Shown here: piece by piece, positions 238 to 58,257 of the stretch
Layout of the letters: each line of letters opens with the position of its first letter
Position numbering within the stretch: position 1 is the first letter of the stretch
From: Patescibacteria group bacterium
GTDB taxonomy: Bacteria; Patescibacteriota; Patescibacteriia; XYB2-FULL-38-15
Length of the DNA: 64,000 bases
Direction: 5' to 3'
NCBI GenBank assembly: GCA_041737355.1
Contig: JBGSRW010000008.1
Location: 24,466 to 88,465, forward strand
Translations under genes and position numbers: made by a program
Notes under the pieces: model-generated
The model's database searches: none
Told to the model about the DNA's origin: nothing
The model's input: the letters and a program-made list of their open reading frames with translations, nothing else

Positions 238-1866
238 ATGATTAAAAATTTGCTGAACGGAGAATCTAAAACAATTACCGGGGCTGCTCTTCTTTTGGGA
301 GCAGCTTCTTTGGCGTCCCGTTTTTTGGGAGTTATCCGCGACAGGGTTCTGGCCGGACAATTCGGGGCGGGCGATACTCTCGATGTTTATTACGCCGCCT
401 TCCGTATCCCTGATTTTATTTTCAATCTCCTGATTTTGGGCGCTCTCTCGGCCGGCTTCATTCCAATTTTTACCGCGGCGCTTTCTTCAGCGAAAGAGAG
501 GGGGGATAATTTTGGCAAGGCGTGGGATATCGTGAGCGGACTGATAAACATAATGGGCATTCTTTTAATTTTTCTTTGCGGTTTGTTTATCGTTTTAAGC
601 CCTTTTATTGTTCCGGTTATCACTCCTGGTTTTGGCGCGGAAAAAATGGCACTGACCGTGACAATGACCCAGATCATGATGCTTAGTCCGCTTTTTTTGG
701 GTTTGAGCAATATTTTCGGCGGAGTTCTCCAATCCTTCAAAAGATTTTTTATTTATTCCCTGGCTCCTATTTTTTATAATCTCGGTATTATTCTCGGAGC
801 TTTATTTTTTACCAAATGGTGGGGAATTTGCGGTTTGGCGGTCGGGGTAATTCTTGGGGCGATCGCCCATATGCTGATCCAGCTACCGGCTGTTGTTTCC
901 CTGGGTTACCGTTACCGGTGGATTTTCAATCTTGCCGACCAGAATGTCCGGCAAATCGGCCGGCTTATGATTCCCCGGACTCTCGGTCTGGCCGTTTCTC
1001 AAGTCAATCTGGTGGTGATGACAGTTATTGCCTCGACTCTTGTTCCGGGAAGTCTCGCCGTTTTTAATCTTGCCAACAATCTCCAATATTTTCCGATCGG
1101 AATCATCGGTATTTCTTTTGCCGTCGCCGCTTTTCCGGTTTTGGGGGAATGCGCGGCCGGCGGGCGAAAAGAGGAAATGGTTAAAAATTTTTCCCACTCC
1201 GTCCGGCAGATTTTGTTTTTTATCGTTCCAGCCGCTGTTCTGCTTTTGGTCTTGCGTGCCCAAATTGTTCGCGTTATTTTTGGATCGGGTGAATTTGATT
1301 GGGAGGATACGATTTTGACCGCCGATACTTTGGCTTTTTTTGTTACGAGTTTGTTTGCCCAAGCCCTGGTTCCGCTTCTTGCCAGATTTTTTTACGCGTT
1401 GCAAGATACTAAAACGCCCTTTTTTATTGGTTTATTTTCAGCCGTAGTTAATGTTTTTTTAGCAATATATATGGCCGAAAGATGGGGCGTGATCGGCCTG
1501 GCCGCGGCTTTTTCGGCTTCCAGTATTTTAAATTTTTGTCTTCTTTGGATTTTGCTGCGGGTAAAGTTCGGTTCGCTTGATGAGAAAAGGATTCTCGGTT
1601 CGGCATTTAAAATCAGCGTGGCCGCGGTTCTGATGGCGTTCAGTATCCAGGGCATGAAAGCCGCTCTCGCGCCATTCGTTGATATGCAGACTTTTTTGGG
1701 TATTTTTGGTCAAGGTTTGGGAGCCGGCTTGGTTGGCCTTATTGTTTTCGTTATTTCCGGATTTCTCCTCGGTTCAAGGGAAATGTTCGCGGTCCGCGAC
1801 GCGGTGAAGTACAAATTATTCAAAATAAAAAGGCCGATTATTAATGATGAGGAGGGGCAAAGGTAA
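238..1866 (+). CDS. murJ: Lipid II flippase MurJ (MviN family)
   Basis: 542 aa multi-TM protein. N-terminus AALLLGAASLASRFLGVIRDRVLAGQFGAG...YYAAFRIPDF is the MurJ/MviN signature. Confidence 0.85.
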   Translation: MIKNLLNGESKTITGAALLLGAASLASRFLGVIRDRVLAGQFGAGDTLDVYYAAFRIPDFIFNLLILGALSAGFIPIFTAALSSAKERGDNFGKAWDIVSGLINIMGILLIFLCGLFIVLSPFIVPVITPGFGAEKMALTVTMTQIMMLSPLFLGLSNIFGGVLQSFKRFFIYSLAPIFYNLGIILGALFFTKWWGICGLAVGVILGAIAHMLIQLPAVVSLGYRYRWIFNLADQNVRQIGRLMIPRTLGLAVSQVNLVVMTVIASTLVPGSLAVFNLANNLQYFPIGIIGISFAVAAFPVLGECAAGGRKEEMVKNFSHSVRQILFFIVPAAVLLLVLRAQIVRVIFGSGEFDWEDTILTADTLAFFVTSLFAQALVPLLARFFYALQDTKTPFFIGLFSAVVNVFLAIYMAERWGVIGLAAAFSASSILNFCLLWILLRVKFGSLDEKRILGSAFKISVAAVLMAFSIQGMKAALAPFVDMQTFLGIFGQGLGAGLVGLIVFVISGFLLGSREMFAVRDAVKYKLFKIKRPIINDEEGQR

Positions 1867-3644
1867 TGCGGGAAAAAATTAGAAATTTTTGTATTATTGC
1901 TCATATTGATCACGGAAAGTCGACTTTAGCCGACCGTCTTTTGGAATTTACCGGAACGGTAGCTAGGCGGGATATGAAAGATCAAATGCTTGACATGATG
2001 GATCTTGAACGCGAAAGGGGAATTACCATCAAGCTTCAGCCGGTGCGCATGGATTACAAAGAACATATTTTAAATTTAATTGATACGCCAGGACACGTCG
2101 ATTTCAACTATGAAGTCTCTAGGTCACTTGCCGCCGTGGAAGGCGCGCTTCTTTTGGTTGATGCGACGCAAGGTGTCCAGGCCCAGACGCTCGGTAATTT
2201 ATATTTGGCACTGGAACAGAATCTAACAATCATTCCGGTAGTCAATAAAATTGATCTTAAAAATGCCGAAGTGGAAAAAACCGTCCAGGAAATTACCGCC
2301 CTGATCGGCTGCAAAAAGGAGGAGGTAATTTTGGCTTCGGGGAAAAGCGGGGCCGGAGTTCCGGAAATTTTGGAAGCAGTTGTTAATAAAGTTCCTTCGC
2401 CAAAAGGAGAAATAAGTAAACCGCTGAGGGCGTTGATTTTCGATTCAAAGTACGACGACTACAAGGGAGTCGTCGCTTATGTCAGAGTTGTGGACGGCGA
2501 AGTAAAAAGGGGGGATAAAATATATTTGGCGGCCACCAAAATCGAAAGCGAAGTTTTAGAGGTTGGATATTTTAAACCAAAGTTTGTTCCGGCCGGAAAA
2601 TTATCAGCCGGGGAAATCGGTTATATTGTGACCGGGCTCAAGGAAATAGAAAGATGCCGGGTCGGCGATACTATAACGGTTCACGATCCGGATCTGACAG
2701 TCCAAAGTTTACCGGGGTATAAAGAAGTTAAACCGATGGTTTTTGCCGGAATTTTTTGCAAGGAAGGGGACGATTTTCCGAAACTGCGCGAAGCAATTTT
2801 AAAATTAAAATTGAACGATGCGGCTCTGACTTTTGAAACCGAGCAGTCCAAGGCGCTCGGCTTCGGTTTTCGCTGCGGTCTTTTGGGTTTGTTGCATCTT
2901 GAAATTGTGGAAGAGCGTCTGCGGCGAGAACATAATCTTGACGTGATTGTTACCGTGCCGTCGGTAGCGTACCGTATTACCAACAATAAGGGAGAAGTGT
3001 TGATTATTAAAAGTCCGTCGGAATTGCCCGACATGAGCCATATCAAATTGATCGAAGAGCCGTGGATTAAAATTGATGTGGTTTCTCCGAGCACCTACAT
3101 CGGCGGTATCATGCAAATGGTGCAGGAAAAGAGGGGAGTATATATCGACACGGAATATTTGGATGCCGACCGGGTTATCTTGCATTATGAAATTCCTCTC
3201 TCGGCAATTCTTGTGGATTTTTACGATAAATTAAAAAGTGTGAGCTCCGGCTATGCTTCATTGAATTACGAATTTTTCGGATATAGGGAGGCCGATGTTT
3301 TGAAAATGGATATTTTGGTGGCGACCGAACCGGTTGAGGCGCTCGCGACAATCGTCTACCGCGACACGGCCCAGGATGTCGGGCGGAGAATTGTCCAGTC
3401 TTTAAAAAAAGTTTTGCCGCGCCAGATGTTTGAAGTTAAAATCCAGGCGGCGCTTGGCGGGAAAATTGTCGCCTCGGAACACTTGCCGGCGATGAAAAAG
3501 GATGTGACAGCCAAGCTTTATGGGGGAGATGTAACAAGAAAGAATAAATTGCTTGAAAAACAGAAAAAGGGCAAGAAAAAGATGAAAGCGTTGGGCAAAG
3601 TTGACATTCCACCTGAGGCATTTTTAGCGGTTCTGAAGAAATAG
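1866..3644 (+). CDS. lepA: Elongation factor 4 (LepA)
   Basis: N-terminus IRNFCIIAHIDHGKSTLADRLL with GTPase motifs, 592 aa, LepA-specific C-terminal domain. TAATG overlap with the murJ stop. Confidence 0.95.
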   Translation: MREKIRNFCIIAHIDHGKSTLADRLLEFTGTVARRDMKDQMLDMMDLERERGITIKLQPVRMDYKEHILNLIDTPGHVDFNYEVSRSLAAVEGALLLVDATQGVQAQTLGNLYLALEQNLTIIPVVNKIDLKNAEVEKTVQEITALIGCKKEEVILASGKSGAGVPEILEAVVNKVPSPKGEISKPLRALIFDSKYDDYKGVVAYVRVVDGEVKRGDKIYLAATKIESEVLEVGYFKPKFVPAGKLSAGEIGYIVTGLKEIERCRVGDTITVHDPDLTVQSLPGYKEVKPMVFAGIFCKEGDDFPKLREAILKLKLNDAALTFETEQSKALGFGFRCGLLGLLHLEIVEERLRREHNLDVIVTVPSVAYRITNNKGEVLIIKSPSELPDMSHIKLIEEPWIKIDVVSPSTYIGGIMQMVQEKRGVYIDTEYLDADRVILHYEIPLSAILVDFYDKLKSVSSGYASLNYEFFGYREADVLKMDILVATEPVEALATIVYRDTAQDVGRRIVQSLKKVLPRQMFEVKIQAALGGKIVASEHLPAMKKDVTAKLYGGDVTRKNKLLEKQKKGKKKMKALGKVDIPPEAFLAVLKK

Positions 3645-3766
3645 ACTTAAAAGTTTAAAAGAGAAAAATCACCTGAGAATGGTGATTTTTTGTTTATTTA
3701 TGACAATTTATTTTGGCTAAAATAAGCCAAAAGATAGGATTATTTTAGAAATAGTGTCAAAAGCCC

Positions 3767-3795
3767 TTGACAAAATCTAAGATACGTGTTATACT
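3767..3795 (+). promoter_or_regulatory. Sigma70-type promoter, TTGACA-17-TATACT
   Basis: TTGACA at 3767-3772, 17-nt spacer, TATACT at 3790-3795. Lies in an AT-rich stretch directly upstream of the high-GC island. Confidence 0.5.
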
Positions 3796-3859
3796 TACTT
3801 GTTAAGCTGAAATAGGCTTAAAATAAAAAAAGTGCTTGTCGTGTCAAGTTCTTTACAAA

Positions 3860-4044
3860 GTGCCAGAGAAATTTGGAGGAGGAAGTCTTCGCGGACCATT
3901 TATTGGTAACCGCGTGACTCGGTGTTCGGTTGAGTTAAAGCTCGGTTTTCCCGTTTGGGACTACTAAGATTCAACTCGCCAAAACGCCATTGCTGTTCCA
4001 ATGCTAATTGGAGCGGCGCGCTCACCTCCAAATTCCTCTGGCAC
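3860..4044 (+). other. About 185-nt stem-closed structured element (candidate cis-regulatory leader or small RNA) upstream of ORF 4131
   Basis: GTGCCAGAGAAATTTGGAGG (3860-3879) is reverse-complementary to CCTCCAAATTCCTCTGGCAC (4025-4044) with one mismatch over 20 bp. Internal local hairpins are present (CGCGGACC...GGTAACCGCG). No ORF on either strand. Lies between the promoter at 3767 and the RBS at 4117. Confidence 0.3.
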
Positions 4045-4130
4045 ATCTCCGTGAAAAATCGGAGGGCCAAAGGTCAGACTGTGGATGTTCCCGGTCTGAT
4101 TTTAGTAAACGCAAATAAGGAGGTTTTCTG

Positions 4131-5384
4131 ATGGAGAACGGCAGCAAGGAGATTGTGGTTGGCAAGGAGCCGACGGCTACGGCCGAGGCGTTCCTCGAGC
4201 CGCCGAGCGAGGACGACGAGTGGTTGCTCCTGGATTTCAATCCGGCGGCGACCGAGTCCGCGCCGGCCGTGCCCGAGACGCCGAAGCCCAAGCCGCCGCG
4301 CGTCTGCGCGATCTGCCAGCACCCCTCCGGGAATTCGGTGGGCAAGATCAAGCGCGGGCGGATCGCCGAGGTCGAGCACGAAGGGATGAAGCTGCTCACG
4401 CTCGAACCAATCTGCGAACCGTGCGGCGAGAAGTTGCCGCCCGAGGAGCGGAAGAGGCTCTTCAAGGCGGGGTACCTCATCTCCCTGATCGGCGAGAAGA
4501 ACCGCGAGATGCGCGAGTTCGAGGCGGCCAAGGCCTACTGGGCTGCGGTCTTCGCCGGTACGGCAGAGCGGATGCCCGAGGCTCGCAAGACGCCCGAGGA
4601 GATGCTCTCCTGCGGGGTGCCCGGCTGCCCCCGCTGTCACGATCAGGTCGGCCACAAGGTCGGCCACTTCGTGGCGATGACGATCGGCGGCATGCCGACG
4701 CTTCTCGGGGTCTGCTCCTTCCAGGCCGCGGCCTTGGCACAGTGCGGGGTCGAAAAGAAGGGCATCGTCGTGACGACGAAGTTCTCCGTGGCCGCCCCGA
4801 TCGTCGAGGCGGAGAACGCCAGGCTCCAGGCCTTCGAGAAGGCCAAGAGTTTCTGGCTCGCCGTGGCCGAAGGCGAGGCGGCGGTCGAGGCGCGGGCCGA
4901 GAAGACCGAGCGCGGCGACATCTACCGCTGCGGCGTCCCCGGCTGCAAGTGCCGGGAGCACGGCGACCGGCCGGTCGACTACTTCGTGGTCTTGGACGGC
5001 CAGCCCGAGATGCCCATCGCGGGTGTCTGCCGATACCAGTATGCGGCGCTCCGGACCTCCGGGGTGAAGATCTTCGCCGCGAACAACAACGACGGGATGG
5101 GCCTCGCGCGGTGCGCCAAGCACCGCAACTGGCTCCTCGGCCAGGCCAAGAGGGCCATCCGCGACGTCCGGAGGCCGGACGGAATCGGCGGCGGTCTCTC
5201 CCGTTTCCGCTCGCCCGAAGAACAGGCGCGGATCCGCGAGGAGAAGCGCCGGACGTTCGAGGAGCGCGAGGCCAAGCGCCGCTCCCGGCAACTCGAGCGG
5301 GCCAAGGCCTCCTCCAGCAAGGCCGGCTGCGGCAAGAAGGCCAGCAGCAAGAAGGGCGGCAAGGGCGGCGGCAAGAAGCACTAG
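4131..5384 (+). CDS. Hypothetical high-GC Cys-rich protein with N-terminal zinc ribbon, two tandem CxxxxCxxC...C modules and a Lys/Arg-rich C-terminal tail
   Basis: RBS AAGGAGG at 4117-4123, 7 nt before the ATG. High GC with GC-rich third codon positions. Zinc ribbon CAICQHP...CEPCGEK. Duplicated module CGVPGCPRCHDQ...GVCSFQAAAL and CGVPGCKCREHG...GVCRYQYAAL. Tail KKASSKKGGKGGGKKH. Antisense and alternate-frame ORFs are Arg/Pro-rich artefacts. Confidence 0.6.
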   Translation: MENGSKEIVVGKEPTATAEAFLEPPSEDDEWLLLDFNPAATESAPAVPETPKPKPPRVCAICQHPSGNSVGKIKRGRIAEVEHEGMKLLTLEPICEPCGEKLPPEERKRLFKAGYLISLIGEKNREMREFEAAKAYWAAVFAGTAERMPEARKTPEEMLSCGVPGCPRCHDQVGHKVGHFVAMTIGGMPTLLGVCSFQAAALAQCGVEKKGIVVTTKFSVAAPIVEAENARLQAFEKAKSFWLAVAEGEAAVEARAEKTERGDIYRCGVPGCKCREHGDRPVDYFVVLDGQPEMPIAGVCRYQYAALRTSGVKIFAANNNDGMGLARCAKHRNWLLGQAKRAIRDVRRPDGIGGGLSRFRSPEEQARIREEKRRTFEEREAKRRSRQLERAKASSSKAGCGKKASSKKGGKGGGKKH

Positions 5385-5407
5385 CTGGCCGGCCGCTCTC
5401 CCACCAA

Positions 5408-5542
5408 TTTGTTCTTTTCTTGGAGCAAGTAGTCTGTGCAATGCAGACACTGTTCGTCAATCACTCTAAGGTGAACGGCGACAGGATCTTGCTCCAAGTC
5501 CTTTTCCTCCAAATCAGCGTAAGTTGGTCTGGAGAAAAGGGA
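5408..5542. repeat. Direct repeat copy 1 (135 bp), 24 nt after the stop of ORF 4131-5384
   Basis: Near-identical to 6107-6236 apart from a 5-nt indel. Contains a 10-bp inverted repeat TTGGAGCAAG...CTTGCTCCAA, an inner GTCTG/CAGAC hairpin and a second CCTTTTCCTCCA...TCTGGAGAAAAGG stem. Confidence 0.9.
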
Positions 5543-5597
5543 ATTAGCTCTTTGGCAATTTCGGCGCATAGCGCCGTAGAAAGAAAGGAGATAGTTG

Positions 5598-5930
5598 ATG
5601 GTTCAGGTTCTGATGCTGGCCCTGTTCAGCGTCGCCAAGCGCGACGAACGCGAGGCGAGCGACGAGGGCAGTGAGACCGACGCGGTCGAGCTGCCCGAGG
5701 ATTCGGTCAACTGGCGGGCGGTTCGTTGGCTGGGCGTCGCGAAGATGCCGCGCCGTCGGGGTGGTCGGGCGGCCAACCGTTGCCTTGCCGACATCCCGCC
5801 GCCACCGGTTCGTTTCTCGCGCGAAGGGTTTGACGGACTTCATTCGTGGAAGCGTCAGACTCCGGCCCGCCGTCAGTGGGCCAAGCATCTTCGGAAATCT
5901 TGGGGGCGCGGAAAGAAGGTGGAGGTATGA
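5598..5930 (+). CDS. Hypothetical high-GC small protein (110 aa)
   Basis: RBS AAAGGAG 6-7 nt before ATG 5598. High GC with GC-rich third codon positions in the 5' two-thirds. Stop overlaps the next start (ATGA), indicating translational coupling. No recognisable domain. Confidence 0.35.
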   Translation: MVQVLMLALFSVAKRDEREASDEGSETDAVELPEDSVNWRAVRWLGVAKMPRRRGGRAANRCLADIPPPPVRFSREGFDGLHSWKRQTPARRQWAKHLRKSWGRGKKVEV

Positions 5931-6106
5931 AGAAGGAGTGTCGCAAGAGCGTGCCGGAGGTCAAGACGGGAGAGGGTGTTTACATCCTCCGCGTCATGCC
6001 CCAGCCGTCCGTCTGCGCGCACGAGGCGGTCCGTCCCTCCACCCGGCCGATCATACGCTCCGCCATCAAGATCGTCGGCCAGCACGGCCGCGACTGTCTC
6101 CCATAG
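5927..6106 (+). CDS. Hypothetical high-GC small protein (59 aa), translationally coupled to ORF 5598
   Basis: GGAGG 6 nt before ATG 5927. ATGA start/stop overlap with the upstream ORF. Stop TAG at 6104-6106 is immediately followed by repeat copy 2. Confidence 0.35.
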   Translation: MKKECRKSVPEVKTGEGVYILRVMPQPSVCAHEAVRPSTRPIIRSAIKIVGQHGRDCLP

Positions 6107-6236
6107 TTTGTTCTTGGAGCAAGTAGTCTGTGCAATGCAGACACTGTTCGTCAATCACTCTAAGGTGAACGGCGACAGGATCTTGCTCCAAGTCCTTTTC
6201 CTCCAAATCAGCGTAAGTTGGTCTGGAGAAAAGGGA
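6107..6236. repeat. Direct repeat copy 2 (130 bp), starting the nucleotide after the stop of ORF 5927-6106
   Basis: Near-identical to 5408-5542. Both copies diverge from each other right after ...GGAGAAAAGGGA. Confidence 0.9.
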
Positions 6237-6286
6237 TTCCAAAATTTTTTAGCCATTTTTACGGCTAGTCAGATCCCACGCAAGGG

Positions 6287-6316
6287 CACCGCCAGTTGGC
6301 GGTGTTTTTGTTTTTA
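6287..6316 (+). terminator. Rho-independent terminator closing the high-GC island
   Basis: CACCGCCAGTTGGCGGTG hairpin (7-bp stem) followed by TTTTTGTTTTT. Confidence 0.6.
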
Positions 6317-6319
6317 AAA

Positions 6320-6330
6320 TGTGCTATAAT
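6320..6330 (+). promoter_or_regulatory. Extended -10 promoter TGTGCTATAAT
   Basis: TGnTATAAT with no obvious -35. The same TGTGCTATAAT 11-mer recurs at 8644, 17284 and 26870, with close variants at 10271 and 16112. Confidence 0.4.
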
Positions 6331-6360
6331 AGTCCAATATTTATTTTACGTAATGTTTTT

Positions 6361-6459
6361 ATGAAAAAGAAAAATTTGCAGAAAATAGTATGGATAATTG
6401 TCTCAGCTATTGTAGTTTTTTCCATGGTTGTCTGGACAATCGGGCCAATGCTGTATTAG
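6361..6459 (+). CDS. Possible 32-aa hydrophobic micro-protein (MKKKNLQKIVWIIVSAIVVFSMVVWTIGPMLY)
   Basis: ATG 30 nt downstream of the -10 at 6325-6330. KKK followed by a single TM-like helix. No Shine-Dalgarno. Below the ORF-track length cutoff. Confidence 0.2.
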   Translation: MKKKNLQKIVWIIVSAIVVFSMVVWTIGPMLY

Positions 6460-6489
6460 CCGCGGAGTTTGTAATTTGTTATTAAAAGT

Positions 6490-8220
6490 ATGAAGTGGAA
6501 AGTCGCCGAACCGATCAGCGAAGAATTCAGAAATAAATTTCCGGAGATCGATCCGGTTATTTTGCAATTACTCGCTAACCGTGGGGTAAAAACCCAGGAA
6601 CAGATTGATGAATTTCTGTATCCAGATTACGGGCCTGATATTCACGATCCGTTTTTATTTTTGGATATGGAAAAAGCGGTCGAGCGGGTTTTCCGGGCGG
6701 TGGAGAAAGGAGAAAAAATTACGGTTCATGGCGATTACGACGCCGACGGAGTTTGCTCGGCATTGATCGTAGTCAGTACGCTCGAAGCCATGGGTGCTAA
6801 AGCCGAGGTTTATCTGCCGCACCGCGAACTCGAAGGGTATGGACTGAATATGCAAACAGTTGAAGAGTTGGGGAAAAGAGGGACAAATCTTATTATTACA
6901 ACCGACTGCGGCATCAGTAATCGGGAAGAGATAAAAAGAGCGGTTGAACTTGGAATGGAAGTAATTGTCACCGACCATCATGCCGAGCCGCTTAATTTGC
7001 CCGAGGCAGCTTTGGCAATTATCAATCCCCATTTGGCGCGAGAAAAGTATCCTTTTAAGGAATTGTCCGGGGCGGGAGTAGCTTTCAAATTCGTTCAGGG
7101 GATTTTACATAAAATAAAAACAACGGCGCCAAAAATAGAATTCAGGGAAGACCCGGAGGGATTTGAAAAATGGCTTCTGGATCTTACGGCTATTGCCACG
7201 ATTGCCGACATCATGCCCCTCTTGGGCGAGAACCGGACGATCGTAAAATACGGCTTGATTGTCCTGAACAAAACCAAACGGCTGGGATTGAAAAAAATGA
7301 TTGATTCGCTGGGCTTGAACAAGGCAAAATTGCTTGACGCAAGAAACGTATCTTTTCAGATTAGTCCGCGGCTGAACGCGGCCGGCCGGATCGACCACGC
7401 CAACCAGGCCTATGAACTTTTAAAAACATCGGACGGGAACGAAGTTGATAAATTGGTCGCGGCCCTGAATAAAACCAACGAAGACAGGCAAGCGCTTTCC
7501 GAGCGCGTAACGGCCGAAGCCAAGGAGAAAATAGGAGAAGAGGTTGGCGAAAGAAAAGTTTTGTTCGCCGTGGGTAAGGGTTGGCCGATAGGTATTGTCG
7601 GATTGGTAGCCGGGAAAATAGCCGATAATTTATGGCGGCCGACTTTTATTATGGCAGAAAAAGAGGGGAACATTATGGGGTCGGGAAGGAGTATTCCGGA
7701 ATTTGATATTATGGAAGGGCTCAGGGAGGCGAAAGAATTTTTGTCACATTACGGCGGACACGCCGGAGCCTGCGGATTTACCCTGAAAAATAAAAAAGAT
7801 CTGAAGAGGTTTGAAAAGACCCTGGAGAAATTTGCTGAAAAAAAATTAGCCGGCTCGGAACTTGTCCCAAGCCTGAATATTGACTCGGAAGTTAAACTGG
7901 AAAAAATAAATTGGGAGCTTTTCGAGCTCTTGGAAAAATTTTCACCATTCGGGAAGGGGAATGAGCGGCCGAGATATTTGGGGAGGGGTTTGACGGTCGA
8001 AAGCTTTGAAGGGGTGGGAAATAATGGAAATCATTTACGCATAAATTTGAGCCACGAAAACGGCCAAAAGAAAAAATTTATAGGTTTTTGTTTTGGAAGC
8101 TGGTGCGAGAAATTAAAAGCGGGAGATAAAATTGATGTAGTTTTTGAAATTGATGTTAATGAATGGAACGGGAACAGGGAACTGCAGATGAAAATTATTG
8201 ATTTAAAACATAGCGAATAA
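6490..8220 (+). CDS. recJ: Single-stranded-DNA-specific exonuclease RecJ (DHH/DHHA1)
   Basis: Core GDYDADGVCS...TDHH with DHH and DHHA1 motifs, 576 aa. Confidence 0.9.
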   Translation: MKWKVAEPISEEFRNKFPEIDPVILQLLANRGVKTQEQIDEFLYPDYGPDIHDPFLFLDMEKAVERVFRAVEKGEKITVHGDYDADGVCSALIVVSTLEAMGAKAEVYLPHRELEGYGLNMQTVEELGKRGTNLIITTDCGISNREEIKRAVELGMEVIVTDHHAEPLNLPEAALAIINPHLAREKYPFKELSGAGVAFKFVQGILHKIKTTAPKIEFREDPEGFEKWLLDLTAIATIADIMPLLGENRTIVKYGLIVLNKTKRLGLKKMIDSLGLNKAKLLDARNVSFQISPRLNAAGRIDHANQAYELLKTSDGNEVDKLVAALNKTNEDRQALSERVTAEAKEKIGEEVGERKVLFAVGKGWPIGIVGLVAGKIADNLWRPTFIMAEKEGNIMGSGRSIPEFDIMEGLREAKEFLSHYGGHAGACGFTLKNKKDLKRFEKTLEKFAEKKLAGSELVPSLNIDSEVKLEKINWELFELLEKFSPFGKGNERPRYLGRGLTVESFEGVGNNGNHLRINLSHENGQKKKFIGFCFGSWCEKLKAGDKIDVVFEIDVNEWNGNRELQMKIIDLKHSE

Positions 8221-8637: not shown

Positions 8638-8643
8638 TTTTTT

Positions 8644-8654
8644 TGTGCTATAAT
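8644..8654 (+). promoter_or_regulatory. Extended -10 promoter TGTGCTATAAT; start codon 6 nt downstream suggests a leaderless mRNA
   Basis: TATAAT at 8649-8654, ATG at 8661. Confidence 0.4.
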
Positions 8655-8660
8655 ATAGCC

Positions 8661-10220
8661 ATGGAAAAGGCAAGAAAAATCCTTGGCAGCAAAATTTTTA
8701 AATTGGCGCTGATTTTATTTTTTGTATTTTTAATCGGCGCTTTTTTGTTAATTAGGGAAAAAGTAAATGAAGTCAGGGCCGGAGAAGACGATAATGTCGG
8801 AGGATGGGCATGGTCGGAAAATTTCGGCTGGTTTTCGGGAAATTGTTCAAATTTGGGATTGTGTCCGGACGATCCGCCACCGCCCTACAATTACGGATTA
8901 AACGTGGACAGCAGCGGAAATGTCACCGGATACCTTTGGTCGGAACATCTGGGATGGGTTCAGTTTGGCGGACTTTCGGGTATGCCCTCTCCTGGGCAGG
9001 CGTTGTTTGACAACGGGAGCGACCGGGTTTCCGGCTGGGCCAAGATTTTAGCTTTGGGTGACGACGGTTGGCTGAAACTCCGGGGTAATATAGCTGCCGC
9101 GGGAGGCGGCCCCTTAAGGCAATGCCTTGATTGCGACGACGTTCTGGACGGGGAAGGGAACCCGATAGATGTCGCTTGCCGGATTTGTTTCAAATCGGAA
9201 AATTACGGAGGGAGCGGAAACATTTGCAATAATTGTTCCGGGTGCGTCCGCGGAGCGGAGACTCAGTGCGGAAATTGTACCGATTGCAGCGTTTACGGGG
9301 TAGCTATTGACCGGCAGACCGGGAAAATGGTCGGATGGGCTTGGAATGGAAATTCTGATCCGGCCGCGGCCGTCGGAGCGGGGTGGGTAAATTTTTCTCC
9401 GACCGCCGGAGGGCTGGGTTTGGCCGCGCCATGGCTTGAAACGATATACGGAGAAATTTACGGTAAGCCATTCGTCCGGTCGCCCTCTGCGTTCGTGGAA
9501 GTACTCGGAAAATACAACGCGACTTACTGCGTCCTCACTACCAGACAGATAACCCATTTCACTAGTAAAGAAGGATGTCTTATCACGCCTTTTGAAAGTT
9601 TTGATTTTCCAAAAACAAGCAATCTTTACACCAATGTTTTCGGAAAAATTGATTTAGCCGGGATTTTAGCCGAAAAATATGGGACGGTGCAGAATATAAA
9701 CGACGAGTCGGGCATCCAGGATGTTTTAGCCGGAAAAGTTTATTTTCGCGACGGGGACTTAACAATTACCGGAAAAACTTTCAACAACGGAACTGGCGGC
9801 CAAAACGGCGCGGGTTTGATTGTGGTTAAGGGAAATTTGAATATTAACGGAGCTATCGCTTACCAAAATGCCGGAGTAACAAATTTGAAAAATTTGGCCT
9901 CGGTGGGATGGCTTGTCGTAAAACGCGATGACGGAACCGGTGGAAATATTATTATAAATCAGAACGTGGAAAATATGATCGGGGCATTTTACGCGGAAAA
10001 TGAGGTGACGACCGGAACCTCTGGCGACTGGCGGACCGATAAAGCATTAACGGTTCGTGGTTTGATTTTGGCCCATAAATTCAATTTTCAGCGTCTTTGG
10101 CAATCGGCAGCCCGCGGTTCGGAACAGATTGTATACGACGGACGGGTCTTGGCCAATACGCCTCCAGGGATGACGGATCTGATAAGAGCCTTACCGACTT
10201 GGCGGGAAGCGGCGCCATAA
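8661..10220 (+). CDS. Hypothetical signal-anchored surface/secreted protein with Trp/Gly-rich repeats, immediately upstream of the pilus genes
   Basis: N-terminal hydrophobic anchor KIFKLALILFFVFLIGAFLLI. Repeated motifs GGWAWSENFGWFSG, GYLWSEHLGWVQFGG, GWAKILALGDDGWLKLRG, GWAWNGNS...GAGWVNFS. Cys-rich mid region. ORF-track start 8643 (alternative start codon) replaced by ATG 8661. Confidence 0.7.
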   Translation: MEKARKILGSKIFKLALILFFVFLIGAFLLIREKVNEVRAGEDDNVGGWAWSENFGWFSGNCSNLGLCPDDPPPPYNYGLNVDSSGNVTGYLWSEHLGWVQFGGLSGMPSPGQALFDNGSDRVSGWAKILALGDDGWLKLRGNIAAAGGGPLRQCLDCDDVLDGEGNPIDVACRICFKSENYGGSGNICNNCSGCVRGAETQCGNCTDCSVYGVAIDRQTGKMVGWAWNGNSDPAAAVGAGWVNFSPTAGGLGLAAPWLETIYGEIYGKPFVRSPSAFVEVLGKYNATYCVLTTRQITHFTSKEGCLITPFESFDFPKTSNLYTNVFGKIDLAGILAEKYGTVQNINDESGIQDVLAGKVYFRDGDLTITGKTFNNGTGGQNGAGLIVVKGNLNINGAIAYQNAGVTNLKNLASVGWLVVKRDDGTGGNIIINQNVENMIGAFYAENEVTTGTSGDWRTDKALTVRGLILAHKFNFQRLWQSAARGSEQIVYDGRVLANTPPGMTDLIRALPTWREAAP

Positions 10221-23197: not shown

Positions 23198-24595
23198 ATG
23201 AAATTGAATGAACTTACAATTAAAGAAGCGCACGAAGGATTGTTGAAGAAAAAATTTACTTCGGTTGAATTGACTGAGGCCTGTTTAGTCGAGATAAAAA
23301 AGCTGAATAAAAAGCTCAACGTTTTTGTTACTGTTACCGAATATGAGGCGATTGAAGCGGCCAAAGCGGTTGATAAAAAAATCGCAAAAGGCGGAAAGAT
23401 AGGAATTCTGGAAGGCATTCCCGCGGCGATCAAAGACAATATTTTGGTCAGAGATATCCGTTGTACGGCGGCCTCAAGGATTTTAGAAAACTATGTCGCT
23501 CCATACGATGCCACGGTTATAGAAAAATTAAAATCGGCCGGGGCAATAATTTTGGGGAAAACCAATCTGGACGAATTTGCCATGGGCGGCTCGACGGAAA
23601 ATTCGTATTTCGGTCCGACAAAAAATCCGCATGATCCGGCGTGCGTTTCCGGCGGATCCTCCGGCGGTTCGGCCGCGGCAGTGGCAGCCAATATGTGCAT
23701 TTGGGCGCTTGGCTCGGACACCGGCGGTTCGGTCCGAGAGCCGGCGTCTTTTTGCGGAGTGACCGGCATGAAGCCGACTTACGGCGCTGTTTCCCGCTAC
23801 GGCCTGATGGCCATGGCTTCGAGTTTGGACCAAATCGGGCCGATTACGAAAAACGCGGAGGACGCGGAGATTATTTTTGAGGCAATCCGGGGCAAGGACA
23901 AGATGGATTCCACAACGGTTGAAAGGGAAATAAAGAAAAATAACAAGATATTAAAAATCGGCTTGCCGAAAGAATATTTTGCCGAAGGGCTGGACAGCAA
24001 AGTGGAAAAGAAAATCAGGGAAGCGGTGGCAAAACTTGAAGGAGTCGGAATAAAAATTCAGGAAGTAAGCTTACCGCACACCGAATATTCGCTGGCGGTT
24101 TATTACTTGATTATGCCGGCCGAGGTTTCCTCAAATCTCGCGCGCTACGACGGGGTAAGATACGGCTACAGCACCAAAAAATCAAAAACACTTCTGGAAA
24201 ATTATTTGAAAAGCCGGGCCGAAGGTTTTGGCGACGAAGCGAAGCGCAGAATCATGCTTGGGACTTACGCCCTTTCGGCCGGATATTATGACGCATATTA
24301 TTTGCAGGCACAAAAGATGCGGACCTTGATTCGGCAGGATTTCGAAAAAGTTTTCAAGGAAGTTGATTGCCTTATCACTCCGACCGCGCCGACAACCGCT
24401 TTCAAAATCGGAGAAAAAATCAATGATCCGCTGACAATGTATCTTGCCGATATTTATACTGTTTCCGCCAATGTTGCCGGAGTCCCGGCCATTTCCGTTC
24501 CCTGCGGCTTAGCCAATAAAATGCCGGTCGGTTTGCAGATTATGGCGTCGTGGTTTAACGAAGAAAAATTATTCCAAGCAGCTAAATTAATTTAA
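23198..24595 (+). CDS. gatA: Asp/Glu-tRNA amidotransferase subunit A (amidase)
   Basis: Amidase signature GGSSGGSAAAVAA and catalytic Ser-cisSer-Lys context. 465 aa. Confidence 0.9.
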   Translation: MKLNELTIKEAHEGLLKKKFTSVELTEACLVEIKKLNKKLNVFVTVTEYEAIEAAKAVDKKIAKGGKIGILEGIPAAIKDNILVRDIRCTAASRILENYVAPYDATVIEKLKSAGAIILGKTNLDEFAMGGSTENSYFGPTKNPHDPACVSGGSSGGSAAAVAANMCIWALGSDTGGSVREPASFCGVTGMKPTYGAVSRYGLMAMASSLDQIGPITKNAEDAEIIFEAIRGKDKMDSTTVEREIKKNNKILKIGLPKEYFAEGLDSKVEKKIREAVAKLEGVGIKIQEVSLPHTEYSLAVYYLIMPAEVSSNLARYDGVRYGYSTKKSKTLLENYLKSRAEGFGDEAKRRIMLGTYALSAGYYDAYYLQAQKMRTLIRQDFEKVFKEVDCLITPTAPTTAFKIGEKINDPLTMYLADIYTVSANVAGVPAISVPCGLANKMPVGLQIMASWFNEEKLFQAAKLI

Positions 24596-25740: not shown

Positions 25741-26808
25741 ATGCGAATGCCAAAGGGTAGAAGGCCGCACACTGTGCTTTGCGCTAACCGGCGAGCCGGC
25801 TGGCGCTTTGAACAATGGTCGGAGTTGGACCAGTGGAGCCTCGAGGCCGGCATCAGAACATATGCCCTATCAGAGATCGAAGAGCTCGATCCCGTCATCG
25901 CGAATTTCGATGACGAGACGCTGCTTCTCCTGATTTACGGCGGGGACGGAACCCTGCTTCAGATTATGAACAGCTTGCTCCGGCGCAAACGGCGCAAGGG
26001 CAAGCCAAAGCCGAAAATGCCGATCATTGTGCCCGTCGGAGGAGGCACGATGAAACGCCTGCCGCGCTGGGCGCTTTGGAACGGCACGCCGGCTGAAAAT
26101 GCCATGACAGCCCTTGAACTTTTCGAGGGCAAGCGTCTGCCGTACCTGCCTCTTCCCTTGCTAAAAGTGGAGTGGGGTGGGCAATGCTACTTCGCGGTCA
26201 CTCTCATGGCTGGAGCCTTGGTTCGTATCATGCAGGAGTACTCGCGTTTCAAGACAACGCCGGCAATTGCCGGACTTTTTTCCGCCGGAGCCTTGGCCGC
26301 CGCGGCCTTTGACAGGCCAAAGTTTTTCACCAGACTCTACGGGCAAATCCGGGCCAAGGTGACCTCCGACGGAGAGGTTCTCGGGACCGAACGGTTCATT
26401 GTCGTGATTCGTGACGTTCTCGAGGAATTGATTTTCTCGATCAAACCGTACAAGGGAATCTGCGCGCCGGGCCAGTCCTTCTCTCTGGCCTACGCCATCG
26501 ACTACCACGAGGTGGCGCGAAAGTTTCCTTGGATTGTTGCGGGAGCGGTTCCCGGCAACGACCCCCGGTATTTCAATCGGCCGGCAAGTTTAACCGTAAT
26601 CGAGCCGCACGAGGAGATTCCCTTTACGCTCGACGGCGAATACTTTACGGCCAAGCCGGGCGAGACCATCAAGGTTTCCCAGGGGCCGGAAGTAAGAGTT
26701 GCCGTTAACCCGTTCGTTCATCTGACTCTTCTGAAACGGTTTTTGAATCGCGGCAGAAGCTTGAAGGAGGTCGTGAGTTACATTTTTCCTACGCCGAGAA
26801 AGAACTAG
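25741..26808 (+). CDS. Lipid kinase, diacylglycerol-kinase catalytic domain family (YegS/DgkB-like), high GC
   Basis: Signature LLLIYGGDGTLLQIMNSL (GGDGT motif of DAGK_cat). RBS GGAGGAAGGAG. GC much higher than flanking genes. Confidence 0.7.
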   Translation: MRMPKGRRPHTVLCANRRAGWRFEQWSELDQWSLEAGIRTYALSEIEELDPVIANFDDETLLLLIYGGDGTLLQIMNSLLRRKRRKGKPKPKMPIIVPVGGGTMKRLPRWALWNGTPAENAMTALELFEGKRLPYLPLPLLKVEWGGQCYFAVTLMAGALVRIMQEYSRFKTTPAIAGLFSAGALAAAAFDRPKFFTRLYGQIRAKVTSDGEVLGTERFIVVIRDVLEELIFSIKPYKGICAPGQSFSLAYAIDYHEVARKFPWIVAGAVPGNDPRYFNRPASLTVIEPHEEIPFTLDGEYFTAKPGETIKVSQGPEVRVAVNPFVHLTLLKRFLNRGRSLKEVVSYIFPTPRKN

Positions 26809-39947: not shown

Positions 39948-40814
39948 ATGCAAAAAAAGGAGATGTCTCCTGAAAGTGTGAGCGAGTGCGCTCGTCTGAC
40001 TGAAGCGGAACTGGCCAACTTGGGCGTTGTCCTTTCCGCCTACCGTTCTTTCCGAGGCGACCGGCGTCGACATATCGCCTACGTCACGATGCCGATCACG
40101 ACCGGCCGGCGGTTGCGCGACATCCTGACAACGCGCCACGCGAAGAGCGCCGCAGAACTTGCGGCCAAAATCGGCAGAGAGGCCTTTTTTGACCTCGTGA
40201 TCAGACCAAACATCGCGGAGGGAATTGCTTTTGCCGACAGAGTCGCAGCAAGGGATTCACTGCTTTGCGTTGCGCCTTCGGTGTTCAGTGCCAGGTGCTG
40301 GCAATGGTCGCAGGATGCCTACATGTCCCTTTGGTACCGCGTTCTGGGAGAAATGGCCGGAGCGCATTATCTCATGGACGGCTGGGAATACTCCGTCGGC
40401 GGCGTGAAAGAAGCGATGTTTTCCATGGCCATGCAGTGGCGCATCTTCCGGCGCTACAACATCCACAAGATGGCGCAGGCCTGGGGTCTAGAGAATTTTC
40501 ATCCCGGCATGAGCCCGCAAGCGGAAATAGCCGAGCTTGAGCGCATGTGGAGCATCCGCCTTTACGACGAACAGGGCAAGGAACTTCGCATCGATCAAAT
40601 CCTGGCGATGGTTGTTCGCGCAATCAAGGAGCTGGCAAAAAACGGCTTGCCGTACGAGGATCTGCTCGGCCCCGCCCGGAACCTGAAGGGGATGCCCATA
40701 CTGTCACCGCTTATCGGCGGCGGCAACCGGTATGACGAGCCGTTTGTTCCGGAAGTGACGGATGCGTACGTGATGGCGGCAGATGAGCTCGTGGCATTCG
40801 AGGCCGCCCATTAA
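39948..40814 (+). CDS. Hypothetical high-GC protein (288 aa), unknown function
   Basis: RBS AAAGGAGGGAGGG. Very high GC. Alternate frames are Arg-rich artefacts. No recognised motif (YVTMPITTGRR...). Confidence 0.6.
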   Translation: MQKKEMSPESVSECARLTEAELANLGVVLSAYRSFRGDRRRHIAYVTMPITTGRRLRDILTTRHAKSAAELAAKIGREAFFDLVIRPNIAEGIAFADRVAARDSLLCVAPSVFSARCWQWSQDAYMSLWYRVLGEMAGAHYLMDGWEYSVGGVKEAMFSMAMQWRIFRRYNIHKMAQAWGLENFHPGMSPQAEIAELERMWSIRLYDEQGKELRIDQILAMVVRAIKELAKNGLPYEDLLGPARNLKGMPILSPLIGGGNRYDEPFVPEVTDAYVMAADELVAFEAAH

Positions 40815-57930: not shown

Positions 57931-58257
57931 ATGGGACCGGAAATTGCGATCCAGTTGGCCTTGCGCCAGAAGCTGGCAGCTTTCGGCATCAGGAACCACG
58001 TCGAGCCGGAGGTGATTCCGAACGCTTTGAATGCGGTTCGACTTCTGGGTCACAGCCAGATTCTTGTCTTGGGTAGCTGTAGCGCGTCTTCTCCATGGTC
58101 AAAGACCACGGATGAGCCGATCGTGGCTCTGACTTGCAGGATGATCACGGACATGCAGCTCAAGGGAGAGAGGATCGAAATCACAACCACGCCCGACACG
58201 TCCGAGGAACGCGAGAAGACTGGCTTCCGCCGGATCGACCTGCGCCTCAAGAAGTAG
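57931..58257 (+). CDS. Hypothetical high-GC protein (108 aa)
   Basis: Own promoter, RBS and terminator. High GC. No recognised motif. Confidence 0.5.
   Translation: MGPEIAIQLALRQKLAAFGIRNHVEPEVIPNALNAVRLLGHSQILVLGSCSASSPWSKTTDEPIVALTCRMITDMQLKGERIEITTTPDTSEEREKTGFRRIDLRLKK

Follow-up and report, generated by a model that had tools for sequence, protein, structure and literature searches.

A GC-rich and apparently ancient orphan operon with two structured RNAs between lepA and recJ in a small clade of Patescibacteria

Between lepA and recJ on contig JBGSRW010000008.1 of a Patescibacteria group bacterium (assembly GCA_041737355.1) we find a self-contained unit of several genes, equipped with a promoter, a structured leader, one large and two small open reading frames (ORFs), a repeat after each ORF unit and a terminator. 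We have analyzed it within a 64,000-nucleotide (nt) stretch of the forward strand, positions 24,466 to 88,465 of the contig, and this whole stretch is the window to which all coordinates below refer. A first-pass annotation had recognized this organization, which holds, and had taken the GC-richness of the unit as a sign of recent acquisition from a high-GC donor, which does not. Our sequence comparisons argue that the unit is an old, clade-specific orphan operon in which an extreme codon composition has been maintained while the encoded proteins diverged. They place its insertion, a single event, at the base of a small clade for which sampling is poor. The explanation we favor, with a probability of about 40%, is that of an ancient orphan operon with a hyper-structured mRNA, a leader that would switch between Shine-Dalgarno (SD) and anti-SD pairings, RNA modules at its 3' ends, and rapidly evolving zinc-ribbon proteins that would bind nucleic acid.

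The compositional contrast with the low-GC backbone is clear by both sliding-window and codon-usage comparison, with a unit of 62-72% GC lying within sequence of 42-47% GC. The two kilobases of the unit have GC fractions of 0.657 and 0.632, and the other 62 kilobases of the window lie between 0.384 and 0.558. In windows of 300 nt the GC fraction is 0.62-0.72 over 4051-5400 and 0.53-0.64 up to about 6150, with flanks of 0.33-0.48. The GC fractions at the three codon positions (GC1, GC2 and GC3) are 0.64-0.69, 0.47-0.49 and 0.93, and the GC3 of 0.93 for the large ORF in the window compares with 0.48 for the host. In all relatives except one (locus L100, discussed below) the GC3 of the large ORF is 0.87-0.96, against 0.42-0.54 for lepA, recJ, rnhA and murJ. 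At fourfold-degenerate sites of conserved residues A is found at 1-3% and T at 3-7%, with G at about 37% and C at about 55%. As codon fractions, AAG stands at 99% in the unit against 27% in the backbone, CAG at 99% against 57% and TTC at 96% against 26%; GAG is at 89%, ATC at 94% and GGC at 66%, AAA and CAA are each at 1%, and TTA, CTA, TCA and ATA are absent. The table resembles that of an organism of about 70% GC, with GGC, CGC, CTC and AAG preferred. The ribosomal-protein and rpoA genes in the window have a GC3 of only 0.39-0.48, so the G/C-ending codons are not those preferred by the host, and we therefore rejected translational optimization as the cause of the bias.

GC is high from the ATG onward to about 20 nt past the stop codon. 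The leader and 3' elements of the same transcript have GC fractions of 0.44-0.52 and contain many A-U and G-U pairs. On inspection of the sequences, the variable non-coding inserts of the relatives (an extra hairpin ahead of the leader in L001 and L004, and insertions in hairpin P4 of the 3' element in L001 and L096) are not GC-rich either. Thus the force that keeps the three ORFs at a GC3 of about 0.9 acts on the translated segments only, and not on the region.

This composition has been held through extensive synonymous turnover. Identity between alleles at fourfold sites is 0.53-0.66, where composition alone would give 0.42-0.49, and when normalized it corresponds approximately to the divergence of lepA. 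By the Nei-Gojobori method the proportion of synonymous differences (pS) is in the range 0.32-0.54, near the maximum that two-state sites allow. The proportion of non-synonymous differences (pN) is 0.27-0.53, compared with 0.05-0.10 for lepA; for the first small ORF, s1, it is 0.29-0.39. Bacterial mutation is AT-biased, and the many synonymous substitutions have all landed on G or C; a fixation bias, either selection or biased gene conversion, must therefore hold the composition. This contradicts the reading of a recent acquisition.

Codon usage alone does not account for the degree of base pairing in the coding RNA. The large ORFs fold with about -69 kcal/mol per 150 nt, compared with about -35 for lepA and recJ. 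When each was compared with synonymous shuffles preserving the protein, the codon usage and the dinucleotides, all nine large ORFs were more stable than their shuffles, with z-scores from -1.7 to -10.7 (-3.7 for the window, and -10.7 for L103, a distant homologue described below). The same test gave -1.2 for lepA, -0.9 for recJ and +0.9 for murJ. Our interpretation is that selection specific to this gene family favors a coding RNA with extensive base pairing.

Two further observations concern the coding composition. The antisense frame read codon for codon against the large ORF has no stop in eight of nine alleles, and in the window it forms a minus-strand ORF of 458 amino acids (aa) at 4074-5450. 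This follows from the lack of TTA, CTA and TCA codons, and we treat it as a by-product rather than as an overlapping gene. Three other orphan ORFs (ORFans) of the window have raised GC3 in a backbone of 0.45 GC: 25741-26808 (0.68), 39948-40814 (0.69) and 57931-58257 (0.74). None has a convincing Pfam family, the first having a weak match to DAGK_cat, and none has a leader or a 3' element.

The large protein has few relatives. Nine homologues were found among 5.8 billion protein clusters, and 18 representative clusters among 1.84 billion, which represent about 15 billion proteins; wherever the DNA of a representative cluster was obtainable, the surrounding backbone proved to be low in GC and Patescibacteria-like. 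The family is absent from the GTDB representative genomes, and neither the family nor its two RNAs were found in IMG/VR (searched with protein patterns and two RNA patterns), nor the family in phage or plasmid collections. A scan of JGI metagenomes returned four loci, of which two duplicate contigs obtained from other sources, one (L090) is linked to lepA, and one (L091) is too short to place. In L001, L004, L007, L090, L097 and L099 the gene order is murJ, lepA, the unit, recJ and rnhA, followed by the same ORFan and pil genes, and in L100 and L102 the gene for the large protein again lies upstream of recJ or of a conserved peptide gene. At all these loci except L100 the unit has a GC fraction of 0.62-0.73 in a backbone of 0.40-0.47. 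A very distant homologue of 646 aa, at a different locus (L103), has a GC3 of 0.87 in a backbone of 0.41-0.44 GC. Between hosts LepA is 83-93% identical and RecJ 79-90%, compared with 28-59% for the large protein. Low-GC/high-GC junctions like those of the window are found again in assemblies made independently (JGI, ENA, Logan and NCBI), which disposes of the chimeric mis-assembly that had been raised as a possible artifact.

That the unit is an insertion is borne out by more distant Patescibacteria. We compared 80 loci with LepA no more than 67% identical, from Magasanikbacteria, Falkowbacteria, Buchananbacteria, Uhrbacteria and others. In 55 of them recJ directly follows lepA, mostly with a gap of 100-300 bp, and none of these 55 junctions carries a high-GC segment, a member of the family or the 3' element. 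This empty, ancestral junction is the basis for placing a single insertion at the base of the clade. Unrelated insertions of 1-3.4 kb occupy the gap in 11 of the 55, suggesting that it is a general insertion hotspot. A full-text literature search returned no description of the locus, its RNAs or the codon phenomenon.

The leader and the 3' element are two new structured RNAs supported by covariation. The leader had been recognized as a stem-closed structure of 185 nt, and its core proves to be 181 nt long. Its fold has a z-score of -8.8. From RNAalifold and pair counts over eight loci, spanning the whole leader including the hairpin at 4070-4103, there are 73 pairs, of which 24 are compensatory, and 96.6% of positions are paired compared with 32-50% in controls in which the partners were slid by 1-3 columns. 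In the closing stem P1 an SD mimic, UUUGGAGGAGG, is base-paired with UCACCUCCAAAU, and 14 of the 18 pairs of the stem never vary. Eight nucleotides of the anti-SD-like strand are identical to UCACCUCC, the conserved motif at the 3' end of 16S rRNA. Hairpin P5 occurs as CUCCG/CGGAG, UCCGU/ACGGA and CCCGG/CCGGG in the alignment. P6 has 12 pairs, is 98.9% paired across the eight loci, and is followed in all eight by a (G/A)UUUU tail (GAUUUU in seven, GGUUUUU in L097). When the 5' strand of P1 is omitted, thermodynamic prediction pairs the CCUCC of the leader with the real SD in three of four loci folded. Such an alternative CCUCC:GGAGG pairing would have the logic of a translational ON switch, and P6 may act in transcription attenuation.

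The leader occurs once at each island locus and at no other place in the 1.15 Mb scanned. No Rfam 15 family matches within the 64 kb at gathering thresholds, and neither the leader nor the 3' element is matched at E<=10; within 3600-6500 the best Rfam scores are 9.7-22 bits, far under the family thresholds. Upstream of the homologue in L100 (520-985 of that locus) there is no leader, and tandem GACGCAGACT-like repeats are found with a 106-aa ORF of raised GC (0.47). The region of the P1 5' strand AUUUGGAGGAGGAAGUCUU (3871-3889) is 79% complementary to AAGUCCUUUUCCUCCAAAU at the start of P4 in the 3' element (5496-5514 and 6190-6208). An interaction between the 5' and 3' parts of the transcript is therefore conceivable, although the complementarity is weaker for the second-copy type of element at other loci.

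The element following each ORF unit, expected to be about 130 bp, is 126 nt long, and its two copies in the window, R1 and R2, are 100% identical. It folds as a three-way junction (P1 formed by CUUGGAGCAAG and CUUGCUCCAAG, P2 with a GCAAU loop, and P3) followed by the hairpin P4. With a covariance model trained on 11 sequences, an element is detected behind each ORF unit at all island loci, those outside the training set among them; in L100 the element is degenerate, lacking P2 and scoring 33 bits. Over 17 distinct sequences there are 36 pairs, 24 of them compensatory, with 96.9% paired compared with 36-40% in slid controls. The many G-U pairs, and a score about 100 bits lower on the minus strand, identify it as a plus-strand RNA. 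There are exactly two copies in the window, both in the unit, and no other in 1.09 Mb of Patescibacteria DNA or in the 80 distant loci, which speaks against a generic repetitive extragenic palindromic (REP) element occurring hundreds of times in a genome. A tRNA-like or tmRNA nature was considered and rejected, as ARAGORN finds nothing.

In L001, L007 and L094 R1 and R2 are clearly diverged paralogues, and they are identical in the window only, indicating recent gene conversion in the window copy. The small-ORF pair s1-s2 is missing from L004 and L097. The single element of L004 has an R1-type core joined to R2-type downstream sequence, and looks like the product expected from recombination between R1 and R2 that deleted the small-ORF cassette. 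Protein P0008 is a fusion of the N-terminal half of the large protein with s1. In L090 an RpoD-like sigma-70 gene (431 aa; 4194-5489 of that locus) follows the 3' element in place of s1-s2. Its GC3 is intermediate at 0.64, and over the length of the gene the GC fraction rises from 0.46 to 0.61. A match to MzaA reflects generic sigma-70 similarity, RpoD models scoring higher. We sought an orthologue of normal GC as a test of locus-driven GC gain, and found none in the sequences compared.

The segments of the locus also have different nearest relatives. The leader core of L004 is closest to that of L099 (84%), and the nearest relatives of its post-leader segment and ORF belong to the class of the window; its lepA is closest to that of L097 (92%), yet the large proteins of these two are only 33% identical. 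From these phylogenies the locus appears to exchange modules among relatives. There is thus some truth in the cassette-like architecture that had been proposed, in the homogenization of R1 and R2, the apparent deletion in L004 and the mosaic of leader and ORF, but not in an integron or transposable-element cassette. Over the whole unit no difference is seen between contigs of different samples, the unit has no similarity to the rest of the window, and there is neither a template repeat nor a reverse transcriptase beside the locus. Hypermutation by a diversity-generating retroelement was rejected on these grounds.

As had been noted, the three proteins have no assignable family in Pfam, PHROG, PADLOC or NCBIfam, and by sequence comparison they belong to none of the known families tested. 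Nor do they match any entry in PDB or BFVD. The large protein has no relative by sequence or fold, and no enzymatic domain, signal peptide or membrane segment. Its N-terminus is acidic and disordered, and it carries an N-terminal CxxC...CxxC ribbon and a basic, disordered, K/G-rich C-terminal tail. Family members contain one to three modules in which a long helix (AFEAAKAYW-like) precedes CGVPxCxC...C, with Cys residues conserved in alignments of homologues. The window protein has three such zinc-ribbon-like modules of four Cys, each after a long helix (AlphaFold2 model, mean pLDDT confidence score 73.7). For s1 there are four homologues in the 5.8 billion clusters, all from these loci. The second small protein, s2, has a conserved C-terminal motif VCAHE..RP..IKIVG, and its relatives add an N-terminal CxxC zinc ribbon. 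The 4-nt overlap of s1 and s2 is kept in L001, L007 and L094. The composition of these fast-evolving proteins suggests that they may bind nucleic acid.

The features are collected in Table 1. The Cys-rich protein, the two overlapping small ORFs and the terminator lie at, or within a few bases of, the positions originally assigned to them. The promoter had been described as a perfect TTGACA-17-TATACT; it is present, and kept across all aligned loci, but a consensus scan gives 11 of 12 matches. Its -35 context CCCTTGACAAAATCT is the same upstream of the distant homologue in L103. In the two 5'-proximal hairpins the aligned sequences (TTAAGCTGAAATAGGCTTAA and AGTGCTTGTCGTG) are either conserved or covary, and relatives have a variable extra hairpin there. 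The linker ahead of s1 is conserved in the R1 rows of the 3' element alignment.

Table 1. Features of the unit and the adjoining core genes, in window coordinates
Feature	Position	Strand	Description and basis
lepA	1866-3644	+	Pfam; upstream neighbor
Extended promoter	3767-3795	+	-35 TTGACA 3767-3772, 17-nt spacer, -10 TGtTATACT 3790-3795; consensus scan 11/12 with upstream TG
Two small 5'-proximal hairpins	3802-3821, 3829-3854	+	Minimum free energy fold; predicted 5' end of transcript
Leader RNA core, 181 nt	3862-4042	+	18-bp closing stem P1 around multi-helix junction P2 to P4
Leader inverted repeat	arms 3860-3879, 4025-4044	+	20-nt arms, 95% complementary, 145 nt apart
Hairpin P5 (CUCCG-loop-CGGAG)	4047-4064	+	Small, covarying
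Terminator-like hairpin P6 (AAGGUCAGACUG ... CGGUCUGAUUUU)	4070-4103	+	Candidate attenuator, ~14 nt 5' of SD
SD AAGGAGG and ATG of large ORF	SD 4117-4123, ATG 4131-4133	+	Sequence; GGAGG-spacer-ATGGA conserved
Large ORF, 417 aa, 15 Cys	4131-5384	+	ORF list; GC 0.69, GC3 0.93
3' element copy R1, 126 nt	5417-5542	+	Direct repeat; covariance model match 136.9 bits
Conserved linker	5562-5600	+	Hairpin CGGCGC-AUA-GCGCCG 5562-5576, SD AAGGAG 5585-5590, ATG 5598 of s1
Small ORF s1, 110 aa	5598-5930	+	Very basic, R/K/W-rich; GC3 0.73
Small ORF s2, 59 aa	5927-6106	+	ATGA overlap with s1 stop; GC3 0.87
3' element copy R2, 126 nt	6111-6236	+	100% identical to R1
Hairpin AGCC..GGCU	6249-6268	+	Fold; conserved in R2 rows of 3' element alignment
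Intrinsic terminator CACCGCC-AGUU-GGCGGUG and UUUUUGUUUUU	6287-6315	+	Fold; conserved in R2 rows; end of unit
recJ	6490-8220	+	Pfam; downstream neighbor

No recombinase, mobility gene, att site or repeat flanking the unit was found, and its neighbors are lepA, a 32-aa peptide gene and recJ. The peptide gene, encoding the hydrophobic MKKKNLQKIVWIIVSAIVVFSMVVWTIGPMLY (ATG at 6361; region 6321-6459), lies between the terminator of the unit and recJ, and has its own extended -10 sequence TGTGCTATAAT at 6321-6331. It is conserved in L001, L097, L099, L100 and L102 at normal low GC. In L004 a DUF559/Vsr-like endonuclease gene of 0.35 GC lies between the terminator and recJ (8971-9306 of that locus). 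Directly 3' of rnhA in the window is an ORFan of 525 aa (8643-10220) with Cys-rich and Gly/Trp-rich repeats, and a stretch of 0.56 GC at about 8850-9450. Proteins of 518-537 aa are conserved at the same position in all relatives, followed by the type IV pilus genes pilM, pilO and T2SSE.

In the explanation we favor, a strong constitutive promoter would drive a polycistronic mRNA selected for hyper-structure, which would make it resistant to RNases and long-lived. The leader would act as a switch in cis. A ligand or the encoded proteins would keep P1 closed, and otherwise the anti-SD-like strand could sequester the real SD; P6 may also attenuate ahead of it. The three-way-junction element after each cistron would protect or define the 3' ends, or bind the encoded proteins, and as a by-product would provide a recombination substrate for gain and loss of the s1-s2 cassette. 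The unit would encode a protein of repeated zinc ribbons that ends in a basic tail, along with two small basic proteins, possibly binding the RNA elements of their own message.

A number of observations weigh against this explanation. The homologue of L100, in a relative of 35% GC, is not GC-rich (GC3 0.33, compared with 0.25 in its flanks), so that members of the family can do without this trait. The unrelated ORFan at 25741-26808, of moderately raised GC, also has a z-score of -3.8; part of the excess folding may thus be general to GC-rich coding sequence, the controls having come from the low-GC backbone. Selection for maximal stability should have made the leader and 3' elements GC-rich as well, yet they are at about 0.48 GC. 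The alternative fold that sequesters the SD is not predicted for L097. The mosaic phylogenies show that the locus recombines, which keeps biased gene conversion in contention. There are about 12 independent alleles in public data in all, and mRNA stability, switching and protein-RNA binding are each properties that we infer.

Import from a high-GC donor, whether recent or repeated, with the donor's composition not yet ameliorated, would account for codon-position GC and a codon table that match a genome of roughly 70% GC, for the absence of the unit from distant Patescibacteria with an empty junction, and for the incongruent phylogenies of ORF and flanks. We nevertheless consider it very unlikely. 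The unit is syntenic in all sampled relatives, its alleles are near synonymous saturation with GC3 kept at 0.87-0.96, and the GC boundaries coincide with start and stop codons, the linked leader and 3' elements having a backbone-like composition. No integrase, transposase, tRNA or att repeat accompanies it, and the searches described above revealed no high-GC reservoir. A fixation bias could instead arise from GC-biased gene conversion, in which G/C-biased repair at a recombination hotspot drives third positions, with no selection on RNA or translation. Recombination is evident here from the homogenization of R1 and R2, the apparent L004 deletion and the mosaic segments, a gradient of GC3 > GC1 > GC2 is the outcome of any directional fixation bias, and the sigma gene lodged in the unit of L090 has intermediate GC3. 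Against this, the non-coding inserts of the transcript and the sequence just outside the ORFs are not enriched, the homologue at the unrelated locus L103 is equally GC-rich, and the excess folding over synonymous shuffles is left unexplained; moreover, reported effects of this process in bacteria move GC3 by a few points, not 45. We regard it as unlikely. We judge equally improbable a control at the level of codons or tRNAs, where non-optimal G/C-ending codons would throttle or condition translation. This might operate through tRNAs with C34, through queuosine status or by surviving nucleases that target tRNA or A/U, and in the extreme through decoding in a high-GC host cell. The bias is limited to translated sequence and opposite to that of the ribosomal-protein genes, NNA codons are almost abolished, a queA gene lies in the window, and Patescibacteria are episymbionts of other microbes. 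However, there is no tRNA gene anywhere in the 64 kb from which to judge decoding, GC1 and GC2 are shifted too, which pure codon choice does not need, nothing points to export of RNA or DNA, and the promoter and SD are ordinary bacterial signals common to neighboring genes.

The two remaining alternatives concern what the unit is rather than how it is composed. A conflict module in a variable hotspot (anti-phage defense, a toxin/immunity pair or host-interaction effectors) is compatible with any explanation of the composition, and is possible if doubtful. It would fit the high pN relative to lepA, allele classes incongruent with the genome tree, and variable content that ranges from s1-s2 to none, the P0008 fusion, the sigma-70 gene and the adjoining DUF559/Vsr-like nuclease gene. 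It fits less well with the lack of a PADLOC match for any of the three proteins, a large protein without enzymatic domain, signal peptide or membrane segment, a unit that is universal in the clade rather than patchy, and an MzaA match that is only generic. Finally, the 126-nt element might be a REP sequence, a miniature inverted-repeat transposable element or an integron attC site with mobile-cassette ORFs, or the variability might stem from a diversity-generating retroelement. An element does follow each ORF unit, the proteins are hypervariable, and chromosomal integron repeats are of similar length at about 120 nt. Yet with two copies in 64 kb and none at the 80 other loci, with covariation, G-U pairs and strand asymmetry that denote an RNA fold, with the ends CUUGGAGCAAG and CUUGCUCCAAG in place of the RYYYAAC/GTTRRRY of attC, with no integrase or reverse transcriptase adjoining the unit, and with no template/variable repeat pair in the window and zero variation between samples, we give this hardly any credence.

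A bolder reading is that the message itself is the selected object, a natural 'superfolder' mRNA with nearly all its codons changed to G/C-ending ones, packaged by its own zinc-ribbon and basic proteins through the leader and the 3' junction elements. The resulting particle would be stored through dormancy, or passed to the high-GC host cell of the episymbiont and decoded there. We consider this a long shot, but if it were true the host-discordant codon usage would be adapted to the interior of another cell.

In genome annotation an unusual GC content and codon usage are routinely taken to indicate recent horizontal transfer, and here an extreme discordance has outlasted saturating synonymous divergence. 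The unit offers a clean natural case of strong, gene-specific directional pressure on the synonymous sites of a few genes in a bacterium with a small genome. It also supplies two new RNA classes, a leader whose closing stem mimics an SD:anti-SD duplex and a three-way-junction 3' module provided for each cistron, as well as an orphan fold of zinc-ribbon repeats. It is conserved, with a promoter predicted to be strong, and yet hypervariable, which makes it a candidate for a function in host interaction or dormancy in Patescibacteria.

Each part of the unit can be set beside a known system. It shares with horizontally acquired islands a sharp break in GC and codon usage, orphan genes, a core-gene junction and an empty site in distant relatives, and differs in having no mobility genes or att site, in being fixed in the clade, and in a composition that is maintained instead of ameliorating. 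As in integron cassettes such as those with the chromosomal repeats of Vibrio, an ORF is coupled to a structured element of about 125 nt, the arrangement is repeated, and a cassette is lost or gained between elements. Here, however, there is no integrase, attI or R''/R' core site, the element is a coding-strand RNA three-way junction with G-U pairs, and there are at most two units, the first always of the same protein family. The bldA/TTA regulon of Streptomyces is likewise a case of particular genes departing from the codon norm of their genome in a manner that could gate translation; in our unit no dedicated tRNA was identified, nearly every codon is shifted, and in the opposite compositional direction, and GC1 and GC2 move as well.

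The 5' hairpins, the stable structure for each cistron and the terminator resemble mRNA-stabilizing structures of the ompA type (5' stem-loops) and the hairpins of REP sequences and 3' untranslated regions, but the 3' element, a specific three-way junction whose loops are conserved, is more than a simple hairpin. The coding region, with twice the predicted stability of its neighbors, is similar to engineered 'superfolder' coding sequences. It differs from those designs in achieving the effect by wholesale recoding to G/C-ending codons, for which we know of no natural bacterial precedent. Lastly, the leader is comparable to riboswitches and to protein-binding leaders such as those of ribosomal-protein operons, in that a multi-helix junction with a long P1 and strong covariation lies in the 5' untranslated region, an anti-SD-like strand is predicted to have two possible partners, and a predicted terminator-like hairpin precedes the SD. 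Unlike these it has no Rfam family and is confined to one locus of a small clade, and its P1 is itself a mimic of the SD:anti-SD duplex.

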